Origin: Candidatus Levyibacteriota bacterium
GTDB taxonomy: Bacteria; Patescibacteriota; Microgenomatia; Levybacterales; UBA12049
Length of the DNA stretch: 64,000 nucleotides
Direction: 5' to 3'
NCBI GenBank assembly: GCA_027459725.1
Contig: DAIDHK010000002.1
Coordinates: 105,866-169,865 of the forward strand
The notes under the pieces are model-generated. The model saw only the letters and a program-made list of their open reading frames with translations. It ran no database searches and was not told where the DNA came from. Made by a program: the position numbers and the translations under genes. The first letter of the stretch is position 1; each line of letters starts with the position of its first letter. Positions 52,133 through 64,000 of this stretch are shown piece after piece.

Positions 52133-53836
52133 TTACTTCAATGAAATAACACTCACTACTGGTTTAGTATAAGGGTATTGTGCAAGTGTATTTTGCAAAG
52201 AAAGTACGACAGGTTTTGTAGGATCATAAAATATTTTTATGGAGTGTGCATCTGCAGGAACATCAGCACTGGCAGCCACTAATAAGGTGTTTTTGTCTGC
52301 TAAATCTTTAGACCAGTTAATTTTACGAAATTGATATTTCCCAATGCTTTTAACTGATGTGAAAAGACTGTCTGGTTGATAAACTACACTCTTTTGGAAG
52401 CTCAAAGGAGGATACTTTTGATAAAATGCCAGAGATGTATAAATGTAAGGCGTATCTGAGTCAATTACAATCTGTGAATAATTTGGCGCAAGTGACTTTA
52501 AATATAATGAAAGTGGTTTATCCGTTAGTCTCCATTCATCTGCATAAAACTTAGGAAATCTATAATAGTATGACGCCTGAAAATAGAAAAAAGAATAAAA
52601 AATTATAATTGAAATTATAACAGTAAATATCTTAAAGTATGTTTTGTTGGTTCTCTTTAAAAAACTGATTAATTCATAACAGCCGTATGCTGAGAAGAAT
52701 GTCATCGGTATTACAATAGGATAACTTCGAGTACCATGAGGCACTACTGAACTAAATCCAACTATTAAAATTAAGATTGTCCCCCATGATAAGAAAATCA
52801 TTGCCGTTTTGGTAATCCTCTTTGAAAGAAAGTATATACCAGCTACGATAAACAACAAATCTATGGGATAAAAAGCACCCACATTTCCAACTCCTACATC
52901 TCCATTCGCAGATCCTAAAGAATAGAAGAAAAAAGAGGTTGAAAAAGAGTTTACTAGATTTCTACCGTATTCCCAGATTAATAAGAAGAAACTATTAAAA
53001 AATAATGCTGATAAGAAATGGGGCAGCGGTGTCATATAGCTTCTCATCTCCACCATAGCTGCCTTAGCGTTACCTCCAAGTAATGTGACATTAGTTTCAT
53101 TATGGAATCCTGAAGCTTTAAAGAAAGTAAAAATAAAGGGTGTAATTAATGCAAAAAAAACAACTCCTAATAATATTATTTTTTTCAAACCAAGTTCACT
53201 AAATTGTTTTTTGTATATAAAAACCAGCGACAATAAAAGTAAAGGCGCATGAAATCTTGTAATGTTATATGAATATAATGCTACTACAATAGCAATTAAT
53301 GCTAGTAAATAAAATATAAATTTTTTCTTTTCAGTTGCAAGTACAAAAAACAAAGTCCCCAAAACTTCAAAACAAACCGCCATATTTACCTCAAGGGCAA
53401 CACGTGAAAAGAAAAGATTCCAGGGATTTATTGTCAGGAATAAAGCTCCTACCAAAGCTAGCCATTCATTTTTTGTTAATAATTTGAGTAGAAAATAAAA
53501 AGCAAAGATTGTAATTACACCAGCCAAAGCTGAGGGCAATCGTACTGCAAAAGCATTCTCTCCAAAAATACTTTCACTTATAACCGTAGTGTAAATATAA
53601 GCTGGCAACTTGTAATCGTTAAATGATTTAAAATATAGAGGATATTTTACTCCATGTTCATCTCTACCTGTTTGTAAAATTGAAAACGCATTAAATCCAA
53701 TCGCAGTCTCATCCTGATTCATACCAGCAGGAATAGCGGATAATTTATAGAATCTCAAAAAAATGGCTGCAACAAGAATTAATAAAAATAAACCGAGAGA
53801 TATTTTTTTTTGATATTGAGATATAAACGGAAACAT
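52133..53836 (-). CDS. GT39-family (ArnT/PMT-like) glycosyltransferase
   Basis: MNQDETAIGFNAFSILQTGRDEHGVKYP. Confidence 0.8.
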   Translation of the reverse strand: MFPFISQYQKKISLGLFLLILVAAIFLRFYKLSAIPAGMNQDETAIGFNAFSILQTGRDEHGVKYPLYFKSFNDYKLPAYIYTTVISESIFGENAFAVRLPSALAGVITIFAFYFLLKLLTKNEWLALVGALFLTINPWNLFFSRVALEVNMAVCFEVLGTLFFVLATEKKKFIFYLLALIAIVVALYSYNITRFHAPLLLLSLVFIYKKQFSELGLKKIILLGVVFFALITPFIFTFFKASGFHNETNVTLLGGNAKAAMVEMRSYMTPLPHFLSALFFNSFFLLIWEYGRNLVNSFSTSFFFYSLGSANGDVGVGNVGAFYPIDLLFIVAGIYFLSKRITKTAMIFLSWGTILILIVGFSSVVPHGTRSYPIVIPMTFFSAYGCYELISFLKRTNKTYFKIFTVIISIIIFYSFFYFQASYYYRFPKFYADEWRLTDKPLSLYLKSLAPNYSQIVIDSDTPYIYTSLAFYQKYPPLSFQKSVVYQPDSLFTSVKSIGKYQFRKINWSKDLADKNTLLVAASADVPADAHSIKIFYDPTKPVVLSLQNTLAQYPYTKPVVSVISLK

Positions 53837-53841
53837 ACTTT

Positions 53842-55383
53842 CTATGGTAAGACCTTATATAAGGTTGCATGTACTTTACCATCATTTTTAGTAATGCTAT
53901 ATACTGGTGTAACCGGCCAATCTGCTGGGGCCACACCTGTAGTGGGACAGTTCGGACACGGCTCATAGAAATAAACATAGGTCGGCATTTTTTTAGCCAT
54001 TAATGCAAGATCGTTCGGAATATTCGCCTGAATCGGCCAATATGCCTTAGTTGTAACGTTTGGATCGTTATAAAAATACATTTCAAAAGCAAATGGCATC
54101 AGACCAAAAGTACCTTGTGTAGCTACAAAAATATGTTGATTCATTGATTCATTTTTTAAATATTGAATTGACTCTTTTACACCCCAACCTGCCGGCCAAT
54201 CTAATACATACTGATTTTTGTCAGCTTGCGGAATCGGAGCATTCACAGGATCTGTAATAAAATAAATACTTACATAAAATGTCGGAAGAATTGCAATAAT
54301 AGTCAATACTAACAAATATTTTGAAAAATATTTTTCTTTAGATTTTATTAGTATTGTTGCACTACGCCAGATCCCATATGCCGCAATTGGCAATAAAACG
54401 ACTGTCATAAATAGTATGTATCGGGGAAAAATAACTTTGCCAAACATAGCATCAAAAACGAAAGGGGCAGCAAAATAAACTAGCAAGACTAATTTCTCGC
54501 GCCAAAATGATATAGATATTAAACCTACTAGTAAAAATACCATATAACTAACATTGAAATACTCCACAAACCACAAGATTAATGATTGTATATTACCGGT
54601 AAATAATTGATATTTCCAAAGTAGTGTGTGACTCAGCCAATCTTTTAAAGGATATATAAACACTGTATCTTTTAACCCAATAGTGCCATATAAAGGAGAT
54701 AATCTAAGAATAGAATACATCATCATACCTATCAAGACGGAGATCAAACCATAACCTATAGCTCTTAATATTTTATTCTTAATACCTTTCTGACTAAAAT
54801 CGAAGATAATAAACATAAACGGCATAAGAGCCATACTTATGAAAGCTCCTGCTTTTGTCAGGGCTCCACATCCTAAAATAAATCCTAGATTATAGCTGTT
54901 TTTTAAATTAACTTTACGAAATAAGATGAGGGAAAAATACAATGCCCAAACATACCACATGGCAGATAGACTGTCTTCTATGGCTAAACGATCATGTAAT
55001 AATGCAAGCGGGTAAAAAATATATAAAAGAGAACTTATAAGAGCAATCTTTGTATTTTTAAAAAATCCATAACCTAGGAAACCAACCCCAATCATACCAA
55101 AAAATCCACTGAGAACAGAAGATAACCTACCAGCTAAAAGCGGATCTTGTATAACCTTTAGAAATAGCATCATGATCCATGTCTGCATCGGAGGTTTACC
55201 ATCAGTCAAAGAGATAAATCTCCAACTTGAATCATGCAAAGCTACCTGAGCCCACCGAATATAGATAGCTTCGTCGGTAAAAATAGGTAATTTAGTCAAA
55301 AATAGTAGCCTTGTTACAAAGTATGCAATAACCAGCAAAAAACCGACAAGGATATTGTACCTGTGCTTCAAAACTAATCGCAT
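53842..55383 (-). CDS. GT39-like membrane glycosyltransferase (divergent)
   Basis: LPIFTDEAIYIRWAQ loop and ~12 TM. Confidence 0.6.
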   Translation of the reverse strand: MRLVLKHRYNILVGFLLVIAYFVTRLLFLTKLPIFTDEAIYIRWAQVALHDSSWRFISLTDGKPPMQTWIMMLFLKVIQDPLLAGRLSSVLSGFFGMIGVGFLGYGFFKNTKIALISSLLYIFYPLALLHDRLAIEDSLSAMWYVWALYFSLILFRKVNLKNSYNLGFILGCGALTKAGAFISMALMPFMFIIFDFSQKGIKNKILRAIGYGLISVLIGMMMYSILRLSPLYGTIGLKDTVFIYPLKDWLSHTLLWKYQLFTGNIQSLILWFVEYFNVSYMVFLLVGLISISFWREKLVLLVYFAAPFVFDAMFGKVIFPRYILFMTVVLLPIAAYGIWRSATILIKSKEKYFSKYLLVLTIIAILPTFYVSIYFITDPVNAPIPQADKNQYVLDWPAGWGVKESIQYLKNESMNQHIFVATQGTFGLMPFAFEMYFYNDPNVTTKAYWPIQANIPNDLALMAKKMPTYVYFYEPCPNCPTTGVAPADWPVTPVYSITKNDGKVHATLYKVLP

Positions 55384-55432
55384 AGTTTGATTATAAATTT
55401 AAACAACAATATTAGCAAATGAGATAATTCTT

Positions 55433-55460
55433 TTGCATTTTTGTATTCTTGAGTTAGAAT
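55433..55460 (+). promoter_or_regulatory. Sigma70-like promoter (TTGCAT-16-TAGAAT) ending 6 nt before the ATG at 55467; leaderless candidate
   Basis: TTGCAT at 55433..55438 and TAGAAT at 55455..55460. No SD between the -10 and the ATG. Confidence 0.35.
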
Positions 55461-55466
55461 ATAAGC

Positions 55467-56804
55467 ATGACCTCAACAAAAAATAACACATTAAAACATA
55501 AACGTTTATTATTTAACTATATCTATAAAGAAATTTCTAACCATAAATTAGAAGTCCTAACTTTTATAATCTTTCTTATTGTATTCATCTTTCTAAGATC
55601 ATACCAGTTAGAAGCAAGAATGTCCTTTAACTTTGACCAGGTAAACGGAGCCTGGGCAGCCAAGGATGCACTAGTTGATCATCACTGGCCATTAACTGGT
55701 CCAGTCGCTAAGCAAAACTCGGGTTTTTCTATGGCACCTTTATATTATTATATTTTGATTCCATTTTATTTTATTTTTAACTTACATCCCATCGCCTCGG
55801 GGGTTGCTGCTATTTTTATCAGTACCTTAACCTTTTTGTGTTTATTTTTTGTTGTTAAAAATCTATTCAATACTAAAATAGCTTTCATTGCAGCCGGTAT
55901 AGATCTTGTATCAGTATATATTATTAATTCCGATAAAATTGATTGGAATGCTGGAATAACCGTGATCACTTCTACATTGACGTTCTTTCTCCTGTACAAA
56001 ATACTAACTGGAAAAGTGAAAATGATAATTCCTTTATCTTTAGTCTTAGGTCTTTCGTTAAGCGGAGATTTTACAAATATTTTCTATTTCTTTATTGTTT
56101 TACTATCTCTTCCTTTCTTCCCCAGAAAAAGACAGGTTCTATTCTATTCCCTGCTGGGTATAGCAATAATTATTCTGATGATAAGTCCAGTTATTATAAA
56201 TGAAATGACAATGCATAGAAGTCAAGGGACTAATCTACTAACTTATATGGGAACTTATTATCATGGTTTTCACCTAACCCGATTCTTACAGCTTAGAAGA
56301 GATGCTTTTATTGAGTTTGTGATGATTTTTGGCAACAATATTGTGAGCTATTTTGATTTTCTTCTTCCTTTACTATTTATATTTCTTTATGTACGTCAGC
56401 ACAAGAACAAAGAAGCAATCATTTTTTCAATACTTGTCGTTCTCTGGTTTTTTATTCCATGGCTAGTTTTTACAGCTTATAGCGGAGAAATAAGCAACTA
56501 TTATTTTTATATGACCCGTCCTGTTATCTTAATGATGCTAGCATATTTCACTTATAGACTTCTATTTACTCAGCAATTAATTATAATAATATTCGTAGTT
56601 ATTTTTTGGGGATATTTTTCTTACTCTAACTTAATAACTTTTTTTCAAGAGAATCCGGGAAATGATTTTCTTAATGCCAAACATTTGATTACACCTGAGG
56701 TTCAGGCACATAATACTAGCGTGAGACATATTTACTCAACTCCAGAAGCATATCTGCAATTTTATTATGAGGACTATAAAAACTTTAACTTAAATGATAA
56801 TTAA
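55467..56804 (+). CDS. Polytopic membrane protein (GT-C-like, unassigned)
   Basis: 445 aa with 12+ TM. Loop FDQVNGAWAAKDALVDHHWPLTGP. Confidence 0.5.
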   Translation: MTSTKNNTLKHKRLLFNYIYKEISNHKLEVLTFIIFLIVFIFLRSYQLEARMSFNFDQVNGAWAAKDALVDHHWPLTGPVAKQNSGFSMAPLYYYILIPFYFIFNLHPIASGVAAIFISTLTFLCLFFVVKNLFNTKIAFIAAGIDLVSVYIINSDKIDWNAGITVITSTLTFFLLYKILTGKVKMIIPLSLVLGLSLSGDFTNIFYFFIVLLSLPFFPRKRQVLFYSLLGIAIIILMISPVIINEMTMHRSQGTNLLTYMGTYYHGFHLTRFLQLRRDAFIEFVMIFGNNIVSYFDFLLPLLFIFLYVRQHKNKEAIIFSILVVLWFFIPWLVFTAYSGEISNYYFYMTRPVILMMLAYFTYRLLFTQQLIIIIFVVIFWGYFSYSNLITFFQENPGNDFLNAKHLITPEVQAHNTSVRHIYSTPEAYLQFYYEDYKNFNLNDN

Positions 56805-58072
56805 GGCTTCACAACTGCATTGTATATCTGTTTGAGAGAATATAGACCACCAATCACACTTGCTGCAATCATTATATACATATATGCTAGTTCCTGATCG
56901 ATAAACCAAAATGAGCTCCATAAGCCAGTAAAAAGATAAGGTAAATATGTTAATTGGGCAAGAAAAGTAAGCAATACAATAAACCCTTTAAGATATTTAT
57001 TTTGCAGTAATGGTAGAAAAGTCACTACATACATCAGATACCACGGCTGAAACTCTGTACGGAAAATAGCCAATGTTATAGCACCTATCATGAATATCAC
57101 CATCATATTGAGAAGATAAAAAGGAATAGAGTCTTTCCCTTTTTTTTGTATAAAGTAAATCCAAATAAAAATGGGTAACAATACTATAGTAGCGTATTTA
57201 ATTAAAGCTGATGCTATTAGTAATAACACAGCCCACCAAAACCTTTTATTTATAAGCAGATAAAATCCAAATACTGCAAAAAACATCATAACGATATCAT
57301 TATGACTGGAGACTAGTGACTCAAGAACTACTAAAGGATTCAAAGCAAATAATACTATCCCTAAGCTTTTTTTTGACTGATAAAGTTTATCAAGAATTTT
57401 GTATAAATAGAAAACAGTACCAAGATAAGCGGATGTCATCAGAATCTTAAACAAATAAAAAGTAAGTATAAAAATATGCATTCCCACAAATGAAAAAGGT
57501 AATGTTATTAACAACCACAATGGTCCATATGCCTGTGCATATGTTCTATTTGTCCAGCGCATGAATCCAAGCATAGGATCATGGGGATAATCTTGAGCCT
57601 TGTGTAAATATGGATTTTGGTGATAGTACGTTAAGATTCGTGCGTCAAAGATATAATTAAATAAATCATAAGACAACATGTTATATGAAAAGGTGAGAAT
57701 AATTGCTGTCAGCCCTATCAAAGTTACTATCAAAGGAAATGATATTTTTCTTAGATGTATTATTCTTAATGTATATAAATACAAAGAAAAGAAAACTATT
57801 ACCATTAGACAAAATAAAAAAGTAGATAAAGGGCGATTAAAATAACCTATATATTGAAATTGTCTCTCAATAGCATATAACCAAGGAACTCTACTAATAA
57901 CCAAACCCAAATCAGCCTGAGTGTAACTTAAAAGTAAGAGCAATATTAGGAATATTCCCCAAGAAGTTGCTACAATTTTTTCTATTTTTGTTCCTTCTTT
58001 ATAAACAAATTTCAAATTGCTAACGAATAATTTAAAGGGAGATAGAAACTTTTTCACATTATTTATAAACAC
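56801..58072 (-). CDS. Polytopic membrane protein (GT-C-like, unassigned)
   Basis: 423 aa and highly hydrophobic. Its start overlaps the end of the DPM1-like gene 58059..58832. Confidence 0.5.
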   Translation of the reverse strand: MFINNVKKFLSPFKLFVSNLKFVYKEGTKIEKIVATSWGIFLILLLLLSYTQADLGLVISRVPWLYAIERQFQYIGYFNRPLSTFLFCLMVIVFFSLYLYTLRIIHLRKISFPLIVTLIGLTAIILTFSYNMLSYDLFNYIFDARILTYYHQNPYLHKAQDYPHDPMLGFMRWTNRTYAQAYGPLWLLITLPFSFVGMHIFILTFYLFKILMTSAYLGTVFYLYKILDKLYQSKKSLGIVLFALNPLVVLESLVSSHNDIVMMFFAVFGFYLLINKRFWWAVLLLIASALIKYATIVLLPIFIWIYFIQKKGKDSIPFYLLNMMVIFMIGAITLAIFRTEFQPWYLMYVVTFLPLLQNKYLKGFIVLLTFLAQLTYLPYLFTGLWSSFWFIDQELAYMYIMIAASVIGGLYSLKQIYNAVVKP

Positions 58073-58832
58073 CAGAGATAATGTTCTTTTTTATTGCAAG
58101 CAAGTCGATAAATCCGGCTATTGAACTGCGTAAAGGGCTTACTCTTCTTGTCTCGACATGTAACCAACGAACAGGTATTTCTTTTATATTGTACCCCAAC
58201 TGTTTGGCTAAATAAAGAATTTCCATATCCATACCTGCTGAAACATTTGCCCCTGAGACATTTTTAAAGCCATGATGAATTTCTGAAAACTTTGTGAAAA
58301 GTCTCTGAGCACTCTTGTGGGTGAACATTTTGAAGCCGCATTGGGTATCGACAATTTCTGGTAGACCGATCAGCATTTTACGCAGCACTACTGCTGCTAT
58401 TGAAACAAATTTTCGAGTCCAGGGCGCACCTTGACGTTGATTACTTCGAGACCCAATCACTATATCATAACCATCTTTGGTAAAAGGGAAAAATTTACTT
58501 ACTTCTTCAATAGGAGTGGCCTGATCCATATCAGAAAATAAAATATTTTCTCCTTTGGCGGCTAAGACCCCTGTCGTAACCGCTCCGGCTTTCCCACTAT
58601 GTTGATTCTTAATCAGAGAGAAATTATCGTTTTGTTTAATAAAATCTTCTATGAACTCAACGCTTCCATCATGGGATCCATCATCGACTACAACGACTTC
58701 ATAATAGTACTTGGTTCTATCTAGAAAATGTTGTACTTTGTCGAGAACACCTTTTTGTAGGTTAGCCATTTCATCGTAACATGGAATTACAACTGATAAA
58801 TATATTTTCCCGTTCACAGAGAAATTATACAA
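58059..58832 (-). CDS. DPM1-like polyprenyl-phosphate sugar synthase (soluble GT2)
   Basis: LSVVIPCYDEMANL, VVDDGSHDGS and FSDMDQA. The ORF-track start is TTG at 58832, but that TTG lies inside a -10 box, so the real start is probably GTG at 58817. Confidence 0.7.
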   Translation of the reverse strand: MYNFSVNGKIYLSVVIPCYDEMANLQKGVLDKVQHFLDRTKYYYEVVVVDDGSHDGSVEFIEDFIKQNDNFSLIKNQHSGKAGAVTTGVLAAKGENILFSDMDQATPIEEVSKFFPFTKDGYDIVIGSRSNQRQGAPWTRKFVSIAAVVLRKMLIGLPEIVDTQCGFKMFTHKSAQRLFTKFSEIHHGFKNVSGANVSAGMDMEILYLAKQLGYNIKEIPVRWLHVETRRVSPLRSSIAGFIDLLAIKKNIISGVYK

Positions 58833-58852
58833 GAAACATTCTCATCTGTCAT
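58824..58852 (-). promoter_or_regulatory. Sigma70-like promoter ATGACA-17-(TG)TATAAT, 7 nt upstream of the GTG start; leaderless candidate
   Basis: Minus strand reads catgacaGATGAGAATGTTTCTTGTATAATttctctGTG. The -10 lies at plus 58824..58829, TG at 58830..58831 and the -35 at 58847..58852. Confidence 0.45.
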
Positions 58853-58902
58853 GCTTCCTTTCCAACAACCGACCTAATTCTTACATTAATTTAAGCTTCT
58901 GA

Positions 58903-58931
58903 TTGCCCAAACCTAACAATTAAGATAAAAT
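58903..58931 (+). promoter_or_regulatory. Candidate tRNA promoter TTGCCC-17-TAAAAT
   Basis: TTGCCC at 58903..58908 and TAAAAT at 58926..58931, ending 18 nt before the mature tRNA 5' end at 58950. Confidence 0.35.
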
Positions 58932-58949
58932 ATGCATGCGAAGAAAGAT

Positions 58950-59022
58950 GGCCCCATCGTCTAGTGGTCTAGGACAGTGGATTCTCATTCCACTAACTGG
59001 GATTCGAATTCCCATGGGGTCA
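58950..59022 (+). tRNA. tRNA-Glu (anticodon CUC)
   Basis: Folded by hand. Acceptor GGCCCCA/TGGGGTC with one G-U, U8, D-arm GTCT/AGTGGTCTA/GGAC, anticodon stem GTGGA/TCCAC, loop TTCTCAT with U33 and A37, variable TAAC, T-arm TGGGA/TTCGAAT/TCCCA, discriminator A. CCA is not encoded. Confidence 0.8.
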
Positions 59023-59096
59023 CACCAATATTTAGCCTCAAGCACAGATTTTGTTTCGTGACTTATTTATGCCTGCACCCACTTCAATTCGAACAC
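59015..59096. repeat. Repeat copy 1: last 8 nt of tRNA-Glu plus ~75 bp downstream flank
   Basis: gggtcacaccaatatttagcctcaa...gtttcgtgacttatttatgcctgcacccacttcaattcgaacac. It recurs at 61982..62059 (first 25 nt 21/25 identical) and partially at 60610..60668 (44-nt core 34/44 identical). Confidence 0.55.
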
Positions 59097-59268
59097 TTTT
59101 CTTTGATATTCTAATATTTACTATTTTTAAGATTCTTACTCCAAATAATTAGCTGATTTTATTGAATTTCACATATGCTAGCCACAAAAATATACTAGGT
59201 ATGCTCATATATATAAATTATCCATTGACATTAGTGATTTAAAGAGATTTACTTGTTGTAATTTATTA

Positions 59269-59294
59269 ATTACATATATACGTATATATGTAAT
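59269..59294. promoter_or_regulatory. Perfect 26-bp palindrome ATTACATATATAC|GTATATATGTAAT; putative operator overlapping the promoter of 59310..60497
   Basis: Read directly and exactly self-complementary. It ends 16 nt before the ATG. A TATAGT -10-like hexamer (59297..59302) lies 7 nt before the ATG. Confidence 0.45.
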
Positions 59295-59309
59295 AATATA
59301 GTTACATGT

Positions 59310-60497
59310 ATGAAATATAGACTACTTTTTTACGAATTACAAAAGTACATCGAACATAAGAATGCACTTGTTATTACAGGTATGCGTCAGGTTGGAAAAA
59401 CAACTTTAATGAGGCAACTATTTGAAGATATTGGAGACAAACCTAAGCTATGGTTCGATTTTGAAAACCCACTTGATCAAATAATGTTTGAAGATATTGA
59501 ATATAACAATATATATAAGCGTCTTGAAGATAAAGTTTCTTCTAAGGGTAATCGCTTGTATGTTTTCATAGACGAAATTCAGAATCTACCAGAAATTACT
59601 AAAGTTATAAAATATCTTATTGACCATTATAATGTTAAATTTATAGTAACTGGATCCTCTAGCTACTATCTTAAAAATCTGTTTCCTGAATCCTTAAGTG
59701 GTAGAAAATTTCTATATGTATTACCACCTTTAACATTTAAAGAATATCTCTATTTTAAAGATATCATTAATTTGGAAGAAGCACATAGCAACAAAATACA
59801 TGATGTATTACATAAGACTGATATATTACTATTTAAAAAATATGAGGTTGCATATGAACAATATCTTGAATACGGTGGCTTCCCAGAAGTAGTACTCACA
59901 CAAGATAATCAGACAAAAAATTTGGTATTAAGAAATATATTTGCCTCCTTCTTCGAAAAAGATATAAAACTACTTTCTGACTATGCTGATATTCGTCAGC
60001 TTAGAGACTTGATATTATTGCTTGTTCCTCGTGTTGGATCAATGATTGATATTTCTAAAATTGCAGTAGAATTGAATGTTGATAGACCAAAAGTCTATAG
60101 TTTTTTAGAGTTTTTACAGGGTACTTTTATGATTAAACTCTTACCTAAATTTTCTCACAATATAGATAGATCTGTCGCTGGCGGGAAAAAAATATATTTT
60201 ACCGATACTGGATTATTACAAGCTATAGGCAAAGTTAATGAAGGACAACTATTGGAAAATGCCGTGATAAATCAGCTTTCTATATATGGTGAATTAAGCT
60301 TCTATAACAAAAGAAATACCGCAAAAATAGATATTATATTGAATAAAGAGATTGCATTTGAAGTTAAGCTTTCGGGAACAAGAAATGATTTAAAAAAATT
60401 GAAAGAATTAGCATTAGATCTAAAAATCGAAAAGTATTATGTATTATCAAAAAAGTTTACAGATGAAAAATGTATTATCCCACCTGTCAATATTTAA
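59310..60497 (+). CDS. AAA-family ATPase of the AAA_14/DUF4143 type
   Basis: Walker A GMRQVGKTT and Walker B LYVFIDEIQ. ~395 aa with the C-terminal region typical of this family. Confidence 0.7.
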   Translation: MKYRLLFYELQKYIEHKNALVITGMRQVGKTTLMRQLFEDIGDKPKLWFDFENPLDQIMFEDIEYNNIYKRLEDKVSSKGNRLYVFIDEIQNLPEITKVIKYLIDHYNVKFIVTGSSSYYLKNLFPESLSGRKFLYVLPPLTFKEYLYFKDIINLEEAHSNKIHDVLHKTDILLFKKYEVAYEQYLEYGGFPEVVLTQDNQTKNLVLRNIFASFFEKDIKLLSDYADIRQLRDLILLLVPRVGSMIDISKIAVELNVDRPKVYSFLEFLQGTFMIKLLPKFSHNIDRSVAGGKKIYFTDTGLLQAIGKVNEGQLLENAVINQLSIYGELSFYNKRNTAKIDIILNKEIAFEVKLSGTRNDLKKLKELALDLKIEKYYVLSKKFTDEKCIIPPVNI

Positions 60498-60609
60498 ACA
60501 TACTACAAAACTTCTAGCTCAAATTTATCCAGATCTTGGTGCAATTTAATCAGTCTGAAACTAAAAGTGTTCCTACTATGAACCAGCAGGCTCACATGTT
60601 CTTTTATCA

Positions 60610-60668
60610 TCAGGCACAAAATAAGTTTCGTGCCCATTTTATCCTTTCGCCCACTGTAATTCGAACAC
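60610..60668. repeat. Repeat copy 2 (partial, ~77% identity to the core of copy 1)
   Basis: gcacaaaataaGTTTCGTGcccATTTTATcCTttCgCCCACTgtAATTCGAACAC aligned to 59043..59096. Confidence 0.45.
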
Positions 60669-60725
60669 AGACTCAATATATTAATACTTGATATAATAAA
60701 CTTAGCAGTATAAGCTAAATTTAAG

Positions 60726-61040
60726 ATGTCAAATGATAGGAAAATACTTTTTCGAGTAGTTGGAGGATTATTCTTCCTCGTAGGATTATTAACTTTTGAT
60801 GGCTCAGCATTAGTTCCAGGATTTAAACCTTCAATGGAGCAAACGGTAATGGGAGTAGTTTTCTTAGCGCTTGGACTATATTTAATTTTCTTATCCAATA
60901 AAAAATTTGCAAATAAAGAGTGGTCTAAGCCCATGGTGAATGGAGCACGAACAAAGATCTATGTTATAGGTGGGATTTTATTACTTCTAGTTCTCGCATT
61001 TGTTGGTTTCTTTGTATTCATGCTCGCAACCAGCCATTAA
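60726..61040 (+). CDS. Small membrane protein (3 predicted TM)
   Basis: 104-aa ORF with three hydrophobic stretches. The antisense ORF 60503..60934 is considered spurious. Confidence 0.4.
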   Translation: MSNDRKILFRVVGGLFFLVGLLTFDGSALVPGFKPSMEQTVMGVVFLALGLYLIFLSNKKFANKEWSKPMVNGARTKIYVIGGILLLLVLAFVGFFVFMLATSH

Positions 61041-61232
61041 TATCCCCTATTTCTCTTCTTAATCCATTTTGTATAATTCTTCTCTAAAATCAAAGTCTAT
61101 TTCTTTCAGTTTTTTATATAGTCGATAAAATTCAGCTAAAACAGTGTTCCACCTATGAATAAGTTGGCTCACCGAAGGGAACATGACTATCCGAACATTG
61201 CATAATATCTTAATCTATCAATGTGGCAAATT

Positions 61233-61646
61233 TTAATAAAAAGGATTGATTGCAGAAACCTCAGAAAATAATTGTAAATCTTTCGTATTATCAGTTGCTA
61301 TTTTTACAATACTATTACTTATCGCTGTAGCCACTAAGTAAGCGTCAATAATTTGATTTGAAGTGATTTTATATTTTTTTATTAGCTCCAACGCAATACG
61401 ATGTGTTCTATAATCAGGAACAATAATATTAGAAGCGAGTAAAATGCTATCAATGGCGACTATTGCATCATTAATTCCCATTGGATTTGAAAATTTAGAA
61501 TGAGTTAGTACTCGTAGTGTTTCAAATATATTTTGATGGGCAATCTCTAATTGTCCTCTATTTTTTTGAAGAAATTCTTGTGCTTTCTCATGCTTTGGAG
61601 AGGATGAATTAATCGAATAGACTAATATATTTGAATCGATGAGCAT
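61233..61646 (-). CDS. vapC: PIN-domain toxin (VapC family)
   Basis: MLIDSNILVYS...D... acidic-residue pattern of the PIN fold. 137 aa, directly downstream of a small antitoxin-like gene. Confidence 0.7.
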   Translation of the reverse strand: MLIDSNILVYSINSSSPKHEKAQEFLQKNRGQLEIAHQNIFETLRVLTHSKFSNPMGINDAIVAIDSILLASNIIVPDYRTHRIALELIKKYKITSNQIIDAYLVATAISNSIVKIATDNTKDLQLFSEVSAINPFY

Positions 61647-61648
61647 GG

Positions 61649-61885
61649 TTATTTTGGTTCTGAATAATAATCAGCTCGTTTTAGATTATCCAATGGGACG
61701 CCTAAATCATGCGTCTTAAAAACTATCTTTTTTGCTTGCTTTTGAGCATCATGTTCCAAATATTGTGCTAAAGCATCATTAAAGATATCTTGTAGTGTTA
61801 TATGCATATTAAGAGCTTTTTGTTCAGCTATTCTTTTTAAGTTTTCATTTATTCGTAAGCTTGTCCGTACTAACATATCACTCAT
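61649..61885 (-). CDS. Type II antitoxin (VapB-like), paired with the PIN toxin
   Basis: 78-aa ORF ending 2 nt before the vapC start. Charged and partly helical; it matches the TA operon arrangement. Confidence 0.55.
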   Translation of the reverse strand: MSDMLVRTSLRINENLKRIAEQKALNMHITLQDIFNDALAQYLEHDAQKQAKKIVFKTHDLGVPLDNLKRADYYSEPK

Positions 61886-61981
61886 TATGCCATATATATG
61901 TCAATATGTCAATGATCATTATCATATACATTCAATAAATGATCTAGCCAAGCGAATGTCGATTCGAACTGTGATGCCTTC

Positions 61982-62059
61982 GGGTCACATCTATATCTAG
62001 CCTCAAATCATAAAACATCTTCGTGCGTAATTTACTATTCAGCCAGAAGGAATTCGAAC
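61982..62059. repeat. Repeat copy 3: degenerate copy of the tRNA-Glu 3' end plus downstream flank
   Basis: gggtcacatctatatctagcctcaa...ttcgtgcgtaatttac...aattcgaact. It is preceded at 61948..61981 by a T-arm-like tcgattcgaa fragment. Confidence 0.5.
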
Positions 62060-62416
62060 TCGAAGTATTGGAGGTAGTGAATAAATGTGCTCCTCTAGTA
62101 TATTCTCCTTTAGGATCTCCCGAATAGTTTATTGCATGTAAGCCTTGACCTATAAGATTACGTAAATTCTCTGGTGTTATTTAGGTTTTCCTTTTCTTGC
62201 AGCCTGCTCTGCAGCAGCTATATCATATATCTAATCAATACTCCCCATTATCGAAGCGACTTTGCTTAGATCATGCTCTGGCCCTAAATCAACCAAATCG
62301 GCTTTAACTTCTGTGTTCTATCTCATTATAAAATCCAATTTTACCACAAATATTATTGTAAAACTAAGTAAAAATTTTTATTGATCTTTTTAAGTATTAT
62401 AGGGTATAATACACAA

Positions 62417-62953
62417 ATGTTTGAAAGACTAAAAGAAGTAATAACGGGAAGAAACCGAAGACAAATAACACCACCACTTCAGGATCATACCTCAACCGTA
62501 GCTGGTGTAGACTCCTTATTTACAACTTCTGCTGAACAGGTAAGAAGACTTAACAATATTAATCTTGACCTTAAGACAGAGCCGCTTTATGATAATCTAT
62601 CTTTACTTATTCAATCCCCTGAAGAACCATGTAAATATTATATTAGAAGAGTTAGTCTTAATAACCATGAAACGGTAACCGAGGTGATTCCATACAACTT
62701 GGGATTAATCCAGAATGCAACAATTAAACGAAATCATCTTTTAACAACTTTAGCTGCCCTAATAAAATGTGAAACATCTGCGGCAAAACAAGATACTACA
62801 AAAAAAGAACTATTACCAGGAACGGTGGCAATTGTAAGTTATCAACCAGATATGCGTTCATTACCCACGATAGATGAAATTGCAATACTCGCTGGTAAAA
62901 GATATCTAGAAATAAAAACAGAATATGATCAGAAACGAATGTTAAATAACTAA
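62417..62953 (+). CDS. Hypothetical protein
   Basis: The ORF track starts at TTG 62381. The first ATG at 62417 (MFERLKEV...) is preferred, with a TATAAT at 62404..62409 7 nt upstream. No recognisable family. Confidence 0.45.
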   Translation: MFERLKEVITGRNRRQITPPLQDHTSTVAGVDSLFTTSAEQVRRLNNINLDLKTEPLYDNLSLLIQSPEEPCKYYIRRVSLNNHETVTEVIPYNLGLIQNATIKRNHLLTTLAALIKCETSAAKQDTTKKELLPGTVAIVSYQPDMRSLPTIDEIAILAGKRYLEIKTEYDQKRMLNN

Positions 62954-62959
62954 TCTTAA

Positions 62960-63560
62960 TAGGAGATTCTTTAATTAATCTTTTGATTATCAATCGTACC
63001 ACCCCATTCAACAGCAGTAAAACCATGTCTAATTGGAATTGTTGCTTTGACGTTTCGCAGGGAGATACCCGTTGGAACACTTTCAGGTTTGAAATAAAAC
63101 AATGTTGGATTTTTCTCCACCATAGCACCAGGGTTTCCATAATACATATAGATTGTGTGGGTGCTAGTGTTAGCAGGTATTGTATTTACTCCCACCCATA
63201 CTTTAGTGGTTGTAGTATTACAGGAATAACTTGTTGATGTGTCGATATAATATGGTAATTAATTATTGGTAACTTTAGATGTGAACCGCAGATTAGCACA
63301 ATTACTCTGCATCTTCCCCGCTGATATTAAACTACAGGTATAGATAGTATATTGTTGATCAATATTGTTAATACCTATACCGCTGGAGCTAATTCGCACT
63401 GTAATCGGTTGTCTATAGCCCCAATTGCTGTTATACTACGCGGCTTGTGCCGGCTTTATATTCAGCATTACAGTTATAAACCAAACCACAGCTAAGAGAA
63501 GTACTGAACCTGTTATTAAATAAAAATACCTTCCTCGCTTCTTGAATCTGAATATCCCCT
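62960..63560 (-). pseudogene. Decayed minus-strand gene remnant (multiple frames and stops), including the 74-aa ORF 62971..63195
   Basis: Reverse-strand translation gives ...TIYMYYGNPGAMVEKNPTLFYFKPESVPTGISLRNVKATIPIRHGF... flanked by out-of-frame and stop-interrupted fragments. Confidence 0.25.
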
Positions 63561-63660
63561 TCAATTTAGGCAAATTATAACAATATATAAATAAGAAGAG
63601 TTTGTGAAGTAAAATACCTTTTATTGAAAATCTTAAAATAAACTTAGTTGAGTTTGAAAT

Positions 63661-64000
63661 GTTAACATTTATCTGTTATACAAGAGATGATAAGCCTATG
63701 GTTAAAAAAAGTTTGTCAAAAAATACAGATTTTTCGGTTTTTGATAATTGTCCTGAAGGATTTTACGCCATCAACACTAAATGGCAGTATATATACATAA
63801 ATGAAAAAGGTGCTCAACTCGCACAAAAAACAATATCAGAGATGCTATATAAAACGCCTCAAAGTTTATTTTCAGACCCACGCTCCTTAGAATTTGGTCA
63901 AACATTAAAAAAAGTTATGAGAGATAGAAAACCCCGTAATATTGAAGCTTTCTATCCTAAATATAATAAGTGGTACGAAAATATAATTTTCCCAATTCCT
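63661..64000 (+). CDS. PAS-domain protein, partial (runs off the window end)
   Basis: MLTFICYTRDDKPMVKKSLSKNTDFSVFDNCPEGFYAINTKWQYIYINEKGAQLAQKTISEMLYKTPQSLFSDPRSLEFGQTLKKVMRDRKPRNIEAFYPKYNKWYENIIFPIP. A PAS-like pattern (F..D....I...N.A.....G......L.G) with no stop in the window. Confidence 0.5.

Follow-up and report, generated by a model that had tools for sequence, protein, structure and literature searches.

What brings single genes and a toxin-antitoxin pair to rest between degraded copies of the 3′ end of a tRNA gene? This question is raised by a locus in a 64-kb stretch of DNA (the window, to whose 64,000 nucleotides all coordinates refer unless another locus is named) from a Levyibacteriota bacterium of the candidate phyla radiation (CPR). 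A long run of glycosylation genes on the minus strand, the last of which encodes a GT2 protein (58059-58832), ends at an intact tRNA-Glu gene. Behind the tRNA lies an islet of three compact modules, namely an AAA_14/DUF4143 ATPase, a 104-aa protein and vapBC, set among related repeat units that we call A to D. From the tRNA rightward, the layout is A, ATPase, B, membrane protein, D, vapCB and C. The modules measure 0.5-1.5 kb, each consists of one gene or one toxin-antitoxin pair, and genes and units are spaced by 33-212 nt. Our analysis indicates that the segment 59025-62081 is probably what erosion has left of several site-specific integrations, made by related elements at the 3′ end of tRNA-Glu.

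Table 1. Features of the tRNA-Glu locus, with their positions in the window and the evidence for each.
Feature	Position	Strand	Description	Evidence
tRNA-Glu (anticodon CTC)	58950..59023	+	intact	ARAGORN; Rfam RF00005 at 57 bits
Unit A	59000..59097	+	last 24 nt of the tRNA (T-loop to 3′ end) and a 74-nt flank ending AATTCGAACAC	nhmmer, alignments
ATPase promoter/operator region	59225..59306	+	-35 TTGACA at 59225-59230; two 18-bp palindromes at 59257-59274 and 59289-59306	
AAA_14 + DUF4143 (PD-(D/E)XK) ATPase gene	59310..60497	+	395 aa	Pfam E 2e-32 and 7e-24
Unit B	60566..60671	+	full-length; left arm (GTGTTCCTACTATGAA...GGCTCAC) and flank-like right part	nhmmer, alignments
Gene for 104-aa protein	60726..61040	+	three hydrophobic segments	open reading frame, hydropathy profile
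Unit D	61140..61172	+	partial; left arm and GGCTCAC only	
vapC	61233..61646	-	PIN-domain toxin, 137 aa	Pfam PF01850 E 3.9e-13, 50.5 bits against a cutoff of 23.6 bits
Putative vapB	61649..61885	-	antitoxin, 78 aa	open reading frame; ends 2 nt upstream of vapC
Unit C	61959..62063	+	full-length, most diverged; left arm, CGGGTCACA and flank ending GAATTCGAAC	nhmmer, alignments
Truncated pseudogene	62079..62332	-	first ~90 codons of a 298-aa orphan gene	tblastn; two in-frame stops, one frameshift

Repeat units at the tRNA 3′ end

A preliminary description of this DNA, made from the letters alone, had reported that the end of the tRNA and its flank (59015-59096) recur at 61982-62059 and in part at 60610-60668. 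These repeats are real, and their coordinates hold. Single-sequence nhmmer searches align 59015-59096 in A with 60588-60668 in B (E = 3.8e-6 with B as the query and 5.6e-6 with A) and 59001-59095 in A with 61962-62059 in C (E = 1e-3 to 2e-3), while the likeness between B and C is weak (E = 0.01-0.06). Measured against 500 shuffles, the local alignment score of A with B has z = 13.3 and that of A with C has z = 9.5. A lack of formal significance had been named beforehand as a result that could refute the repeats; both of these pairs are significant. A profile built from the three copies finds no places beyond A, B and C in the 64 kb. Unit D is 79% identical to the left part of B (z = 7.8). Its right half was considered as a further unit remnant and rejected, its similarity to every unit being not significant.

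Units A, B and C lie in direct orientation relative to the tRNA, and C forms a displaced fragment of the tRNA gene (tDNA) at the far boundary of the islet. Without gaps, the match between A and C comprises the last ~13 nt of the tRNA; once an indel of 5 nt is allowed, it reaches the T-loop GATTCGAA (59001). In the full copies the likeness breaks off sharply past ATTCGAAC(AC). Over the flank alone, B is 68% and C 56% identical to A. A second shared component, the left-arm motif TTCNNACTNTGA, stands upstream of GG(G/C)TCAC and is common to B, C and D; the tRNA does not contain it.

Searches for a structural identity of the units were negative. Folded as single-stranded DNA, both strands of the units do no better than shuffled sequence (z -2.0 to +0.7), RNAalifold yields no pairs and no consensus structure, and a terminator scan reports no site in any unit. 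At E <= 1 the tRNA is the sole Rfam match, and no family is found for the units. Attachment-site hairpins of the attC type and structured RNA are thus rejected as the identity of the units by the folding, consensus-structure and Rfam tests. Among 18 fetched loci, copies of the unit occur only in a group of three related stretches described below (L004-L006), and in IMG/VR neither of two degenerate patterns of the unit had a match, nor did the 3′ end of the tRNA.

Related lineages and the right edge of the islet

An exact-match scan with the tRNA returned a single genome, a Levyibacteriota metagenome-assembled genome (loci L001 and L003; DAIDHL010000005.1). By blastn, L001 aligns with window positions 52764-59024 at 75% and with 62082-62411 at 69% identity, and between these syntenic flanks it has 729 bp, compared with 3058 bp in the window. 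Synteny extends further right, where the N-terminus of a histidine kinase (63704-63997) matches the kinase of L003, and a 190-aa gene of the window (62381-62953) is the diverged counterpart, at 32% identity, of a 186-aa gene in L001. Neither the flank behind the tRNA in L001 nor that in the more distant L007 is similar to the units. We also considered the L001 flank as a diverged unit; the similarity is not significant, and the candidate was rejected. Since L001 is syntenic on both sides and its flank has no unit similarity, it looks like an unoccupied or differently occupied site. An identical segment at the same place in relatives would have spoken against an insertion; at this tRNA-Glu, L001 is without the 3-kb segment.

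A third lineage (L004-L006) was reached via its GT2 protein, which has 89% amino acid identity to that of the window. The tRNA-Glu sequence is 100% identical in the window and in the L001 and L004 lineages, and in L004-L006 it is followed by one homologous unit. The unit of L004 is 73%, 68% and 66% identical to A, B and C, respectively; over the flank only, the values are 68%, 74% and 62%. The likeness of the third lineage to the window stops exactly at 59096, the right end of the unit, and past the unit L004 continues with a different promoter-like sequence and the start of an open reading frame. The stretches available are positions 1-385 of L004, 1-385 of L005 and 1-247 of L006. All three assemblies, which are independent (two from ENA and one from Logan), end no more than 105 nt after the unit, one of them inside it, as is expected where strain heterogeneity or a repeat interrupts an assembly. 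The three lineages are about equidistant, at 72-76% nucleotide identity.

The right edge of the islet is less regular. In the preliminary description, a decayed stretch at 62060-62416 was suggested to hold the remains of an integrase. This does not hold: stop-to-stop pieces from all six frames have no informative Pfam or NCBIfam match, and the stretch aligns to an orphan gene of L001 that does not encode a recombinase. The orphan gene, of 298 codons, is intact in L001 (6368-7264, minus strand), where its 3′ end lies ~100 nt after the tRNA. Its product belongs to no Pfam family and, among 5.8 billion proteins, has no homologue besides the window pseudogene. By tblastn, L001 residues 6-56 fall on window positions 62332-62180 with two in-frame stops, and residues 57-90 fall on 62219-62079 in another frame; residues 91-298 have no counterpart in the window. 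Synteny by blastn restarts at 62082, ~20 nt past C and at about codon 90 of this neighbouring gene.

The rearrangement ends on the right at the segment 62079-62332, which is native DNA. Because the pseudogene stump lacks residues 91-298, the insertion is not a clean one and its right end was lost by deletion. This deletion, ending within ~20 nt of C, removed the right end of the islet together with ~200 codons of the neighbouring gene. Precise excision could not restore an empty site, since the window lacks both the codons for residues 91-298 and the native flank that the tRNA has in L001. Unit C is not a simple attR: in its flank it is like A and B, and unlike the native flank of L001. A pseudo-core, GTTATGAAC, was noticed in L001 at the deletion junction; it was judged by inspection only and set aside, being 2 nt out of register and too weak. 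Of the proposal that an element integrated at the tRNA 3′ end, the insertion hotspot is retained, given the indel relative to L001 and the unit shared with L004, and the clean insertion is not.

The surroundings of this edge are themselves changeable. The divergently transcribed neighbour of the 298-aa orphan (window 62381-62953) has, as noted, 32% identity between the two genomes; for the GT2 protein across the tRNA the value is 88%. Genes to the right of the tRNA appear to evolve unusually fast. A second pseudogene (window 62971-63573, minus strand), with a signal-anchor, a DUF2341 domain (Pfam E = 1.6e-12) and in-frame TAG and TAA codons, fills ~560 bp that L001/L003 does not have in the interval from the 186-aa gene to the histidine kinase. 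The region from the tRNA to ~63600 is a zone of gene flux and decay.

The tRNA itself was also used to scan metagenomes. The full tRNA gave no match. With the 25-nt 3′ end the only match was L002 (227-2351), an unrelated 5.6-kb contig in which nine tRNA genes stand in a row beside a 550-aa open reading frame. Its tRNA-Glu(CTC) has the same T-arm and acceptor 3′ strand as the window tRNA, and the contig looks like a phage tRNA array. The islet DNA had no match in phage and plasmid collections.

Origin of the array

In the origin that we favour, related elements carrying a copy of the tRNA 3′ end in their attachment (att) site would have integrated repeatedly at tRNA-Glu. Unit A would be the current attL-type junction, where the host contributes the body of the tRNA and the element contributes the tRNA 3′ end and an arm. 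At B and C two neighbouring elements would meet, the first with its right arm and the following one with its left arm, on either side of the core GG(G/C)TCAC(A); B would resemble an attP, and D would be a half junction with left arm and core only. Such inter-element junctions would account both for the left arm, foreign to the tRNA, that is common to B, C and D and for the right flank common to A, B and C. Each element would since have been reduced to a single compact module that is still intact and has promoter-like signals of its own. One or more recombinase genes would have been lost, as would everything to the right of C, which is the last junction before the deletion scar; this loss would include the true attR and the ~200 codons of the orphan gene, whose stump would have decayed later. 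We infer that recombinases made the junctions, that events followed this order and that the array is now immobile.

Several observations speak for tandem accretion of this kind. The tRNA is intact, its 3′ end recurs in direct copies that are each set in ~100 nt of conserved sequence, and occupancy of the site varies among the three lineages. The cargo is of the type found on islands (a match to the candidate defence system PDC-S01 and a PIN-domain VapC), and the left-arm motif is found in the internal copies alone.

Other observations weigh against it. The displaced tRNA ends are poor copies, with an ungapped identity of ~8-13 nt and a 5-nt indel before the T-loop is reached, and modules of 0.5-1.5 kb are far smaller than typical integrative elements. 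The deletion at the right prevents the reconstruction of a clean empty site, and the only two other lineages, about equidistant from the window and from each other, do not give a direction to the gain or loss of the unit flank. The open reading frames and six-frame pieces of 59025-62420 contain no recombinase domain in Pfam or NCBIfam, and a tblastn search with a CPR Xer-type tyrosine recombinase gave no match in the 64-kb window, in agreement with the earlier observation that no integrase survives here.

Base composition, too, gives no support to a foreign origin of the islet. The GC content at third codon positions (GC3) of the ATPase gene, vapC and vapB is 0.19-0.21, ~2 standard deviations below the 0.258 +/- 0.029 of 45 upstream open reading frames. 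The conserved native 190-aa gene to the right of the islet is equally low (0.204) and the gene of the membrane protein is higher (0.286), so the shift is not a mark of foreign DNA. It reflects the end of the glycosylation cluster. The codon shift at the tRNA that had been taken as a sign of the insertion is weak and does not separate the islet from native DNA.

Three other origins have to be weighed against repeated integration. The array could be a live, cassette-like system, in which the ~100-nt units are sites served in trans by a recombinase encoded elsewhere and modules are shuffled in the manner of integrons or pdif sites. Modules of one gene or one toxin-antitoxin pair, 0.5-1.5 kb long and tightly bracketed by units, would suit such shuffling, as would the sharp ends of the units with their short inverted termini (GTGTTC/GAACAC in B; ATTCGAA at both ends in A and C), the 55-74% identity that the units hold without a coding role, and the L004 lineage, where tRNA and unit are followed by other sequence. 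However, the units show neither better folding than shuffled DNA nor a consensus structure, and on inspection the GTT/AAC order of their ends, GTGTTC/GATTCGAA ... TTCGAACAC, is the reverse of that of the integron R''/R' cores. D is without half of the site, C is badly diverged, no recombinase was found in the window, and the ATPase gene travels free of units in eight other loci. We regard a live array as unlikely, and it is slightly more doubtful still that the units are working recombination sites of a tRNA-linked CPR cassette system with its recombinase encoded elsewhere. If this were true, the tiny CPR genomes would own an integron-like, tRNA-anchored slot in which single defence or toxin-antitoxin genes are exchanged.

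If the segment came in a single composite arrival that already contained internal repeats, or if the repeats stem from a later local duplication of the tRNA flank, the units would be no evidence of multiple integrations. It is in keeping with either event that only one occupied state of this array has been seen and that the repeats are old and diverged (55-68% identity), their origin being not datable. Yet the modules between the units are mutually unrelated, and plain copying of the tRNA flank would not give the left arm that B, C and D have and A lacks. The identity of 74% between B and L004, as against 68% between A and B, argues against a recent in-place duplication of A. The flank of the L004 unit, 68% identical to A and 74% to B, is no nearer to A, which fits better with a pool of related att arms. 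We consider both forms of this explanation improbable. It seems very unlikely to us that the units are ordinary cis elements, either terminators or promoter-proximal elements, kept for expression, and that the indel relative to L001 stems from an illegitimate recombination in which the tRNA had no part. Visual inspection does show a short hairpin (GGCAC...GTGCC in B), and after it a T-rich run, in A, B and the unit of L004, but the hairpin is lost in C, the terminator scan is empty, there is no conserved structure or covariation, and Rfam finds the tRNA alone. Moreover, the units carry the tRNA's own 3′ end, which a terminator does not need, and L001 and L007 have the tRNA without a unit.

Repeated integration at the tRNA, our preferred explanation, can be set beside systems known from other bacteria. 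Integration into tDNAs is reportedly divided into sublocation classes, an account that goes back to Williams in 2002. With the genomic islands in tRNA and tmRNA genes treated by Islander (PMC4383910), tandem arrays among them, the locus shares an intact tDNA at one end, direct displaced copies of the 3′ end, accessory cargo and absence from a relative. It differs from them in its modules of 0.5-1.5 kb, its short degenerate fragments, its deleted right end and the lack of any integrase that could be found; because the islet has no integrase, the Islander filter would reject the locus. Tandem islands at ssrA in Dehalococcoides have ~85 bp conserved around each direct repeat and an upstream motif that does not align with ssrA, and some members of these arrays are without integration genes and are termed 'cis-mobilizable' (PMC3146451). 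The islet resembles them in having several direct repeats of the 3′ end, an upstream motif outside the tDNA and members without an integrase. In contrast, the Dehalococcoides islands are many kb in length and many have a serine-recombinase module by attL; the islet has neither property, and its target is tRNA-Glu in a CPR bacterium.

Clusters of attC sites lacking integron-integrases (CALINs) and the pdif modules of Acinetobacter are strings of single-gene or toxin-antitoxin modules with sites of ~60-140 bp that have short inverted ends. The islet is like them in its single-gene or toxin-antitoxin modules between short sites with inverted ends. It is unlike them in that an attC hairpin is absent on test, the cores differ on inspection, and neither IntI nor Xer was found in the window; its sites are instead homologous to the tRNA 3′ end and flank. 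Measured by the integron criteria of RYYYAAC ... GTTRRRY cores and an IntI, the unit ends stand in the opposite order and no tyrosine recombinase was found in the window.

Cargo genes and what the locus means

The genes that the preliminary description placed between the repeats, an ATPase, a small hydrophobic protein and vapBC, are confirmed by Pfam, by the open reading frames and by hydropathy. The ATPase matches four PADLOC models of PDC-S01 over their full length (best E = 1.8e-58, over residues 7-347). By this match and its two-domain architecture, it is a candidate single-gene defence system of type PDC-S01. PDC-S01 is described as an ATPase fused to a PD-(D/E)XK domain and as very common (PMC12988326; PMC3424549), and for most PDC candidates experimental validation is pending (PMC12988326). 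The window ATPase shares the AAA_14-DUF4143 architecture of this family (COG1373), whose defence role is itself that of a candidate.

Homologues of the ATPase number 3929, of which the top 120 listed have 63-78% identity and come from several Patescibacteria phyla. They lie in variable contexts rich in toxin-antitoxin genes, two of them directly against the 3′ end of a tRNA-Arg gene. DNA homology to the other loci extends from the operator to the stop codon only, and no unit is present in any of the eight other ATPase loci. The ATPase gene seems to move as a single-gene unit, to judge from these boundaries, without recognisable flanking repeats. Among the matches listed, the best homologues (77-78% amino acid identity; L014 2272-2409 and L015 1846-1929) terminate 9-61 nt away from the 3′ end of a tRNA-Arg(CCG) gene that runs towards them. 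In L017 (4653-7865) the homologue is a lone insert in a type IV pilus cluster, with a pilC-like gene on one side and a pilin-like gene on the other.

The palindrome reported in front of the ATPase gene is also real, as an inverted repeat at 59257-59306. It comprises two palindromes, TGTAAT-N6-RTTACA, at -53 and -21 from the ATG, spaced 32 bp centre to centre and located downstream of TTGACA. Both occur at matching positions in L014 (1000-1084), L015 (575-658) and L009 (5915-6000), and a single copy is found in each of L011, L008, L016 and L017. Across lineages the palindrome takes the form TGTAAK-N6-MTTACA, ahead of PDC-S01-type ATPase genes in several CPR lineages. The coding DNA of the directly compared homologues L014-L017 is only 68-72% identical to that of the window. 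That the palindromes are kept at such divergence of the coding sequence supports the dual palindrome as a conserved putative operator, and suggests tight repression, possibly autorepression, of the PDC-S01-type ATPase gene.

The 104-aa protein has only sub-threshold matches in Pfam. For VapC, the nearest solved structure is that of M. tuberculosis VapC43 (PDB; E = 4e-4), and its score against NCBIfam TIGR00028 (60.4 bits) is below the cutoff of 73.6 bits. The putative VapB gives weak matches to DUF6290 and RelB/DinJ (E ~0.05) and has no curated family above threshold. With VapBC type II pairs, this pair shares a PIN toxin, a small gene on the same strand 2 nt upstream and a promoter-like site in front; it differs in the antitoxin without a curated family and in the VapC score under the TIGR00028 cutoff.

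The promoter-like site before the pair is a strong one (61912-61884; 11/12 in the promoter scan). Within window positions 61884-61925 it reads TTGACA-17-CATAAT with an extended TG, and its -10 hexamer overlaps the annotated ATG. Since the hexamer runs into this ATG, the vapB mRNA may lack a leader, or the second ATG may be its start. The -35 element of the site lies partly within a direct repeat, ATATGTCAAT/ATGTCAAT, which could be the operator of the antitoxin.

The phenomenon is well known in other bacteria, and the value of the locus is mainly descriptive unless the units prove to be active recombination sites. If the array arose by repeated integration, it would be a small and concrete case of the erosion of an integration hotspot, in which the recombinase was lost, the elements shrank to single genes and a deletion ran into the neighbouring gene. 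The locus shows that a CPR genome as small as that of a member of the Levyibacteriota keeps a variable slot for accessory genes at a tRNA, here occupied by a candidate defence ATPase and a toxin-antitoxin pair, at the end of a long glycosylation cluster.

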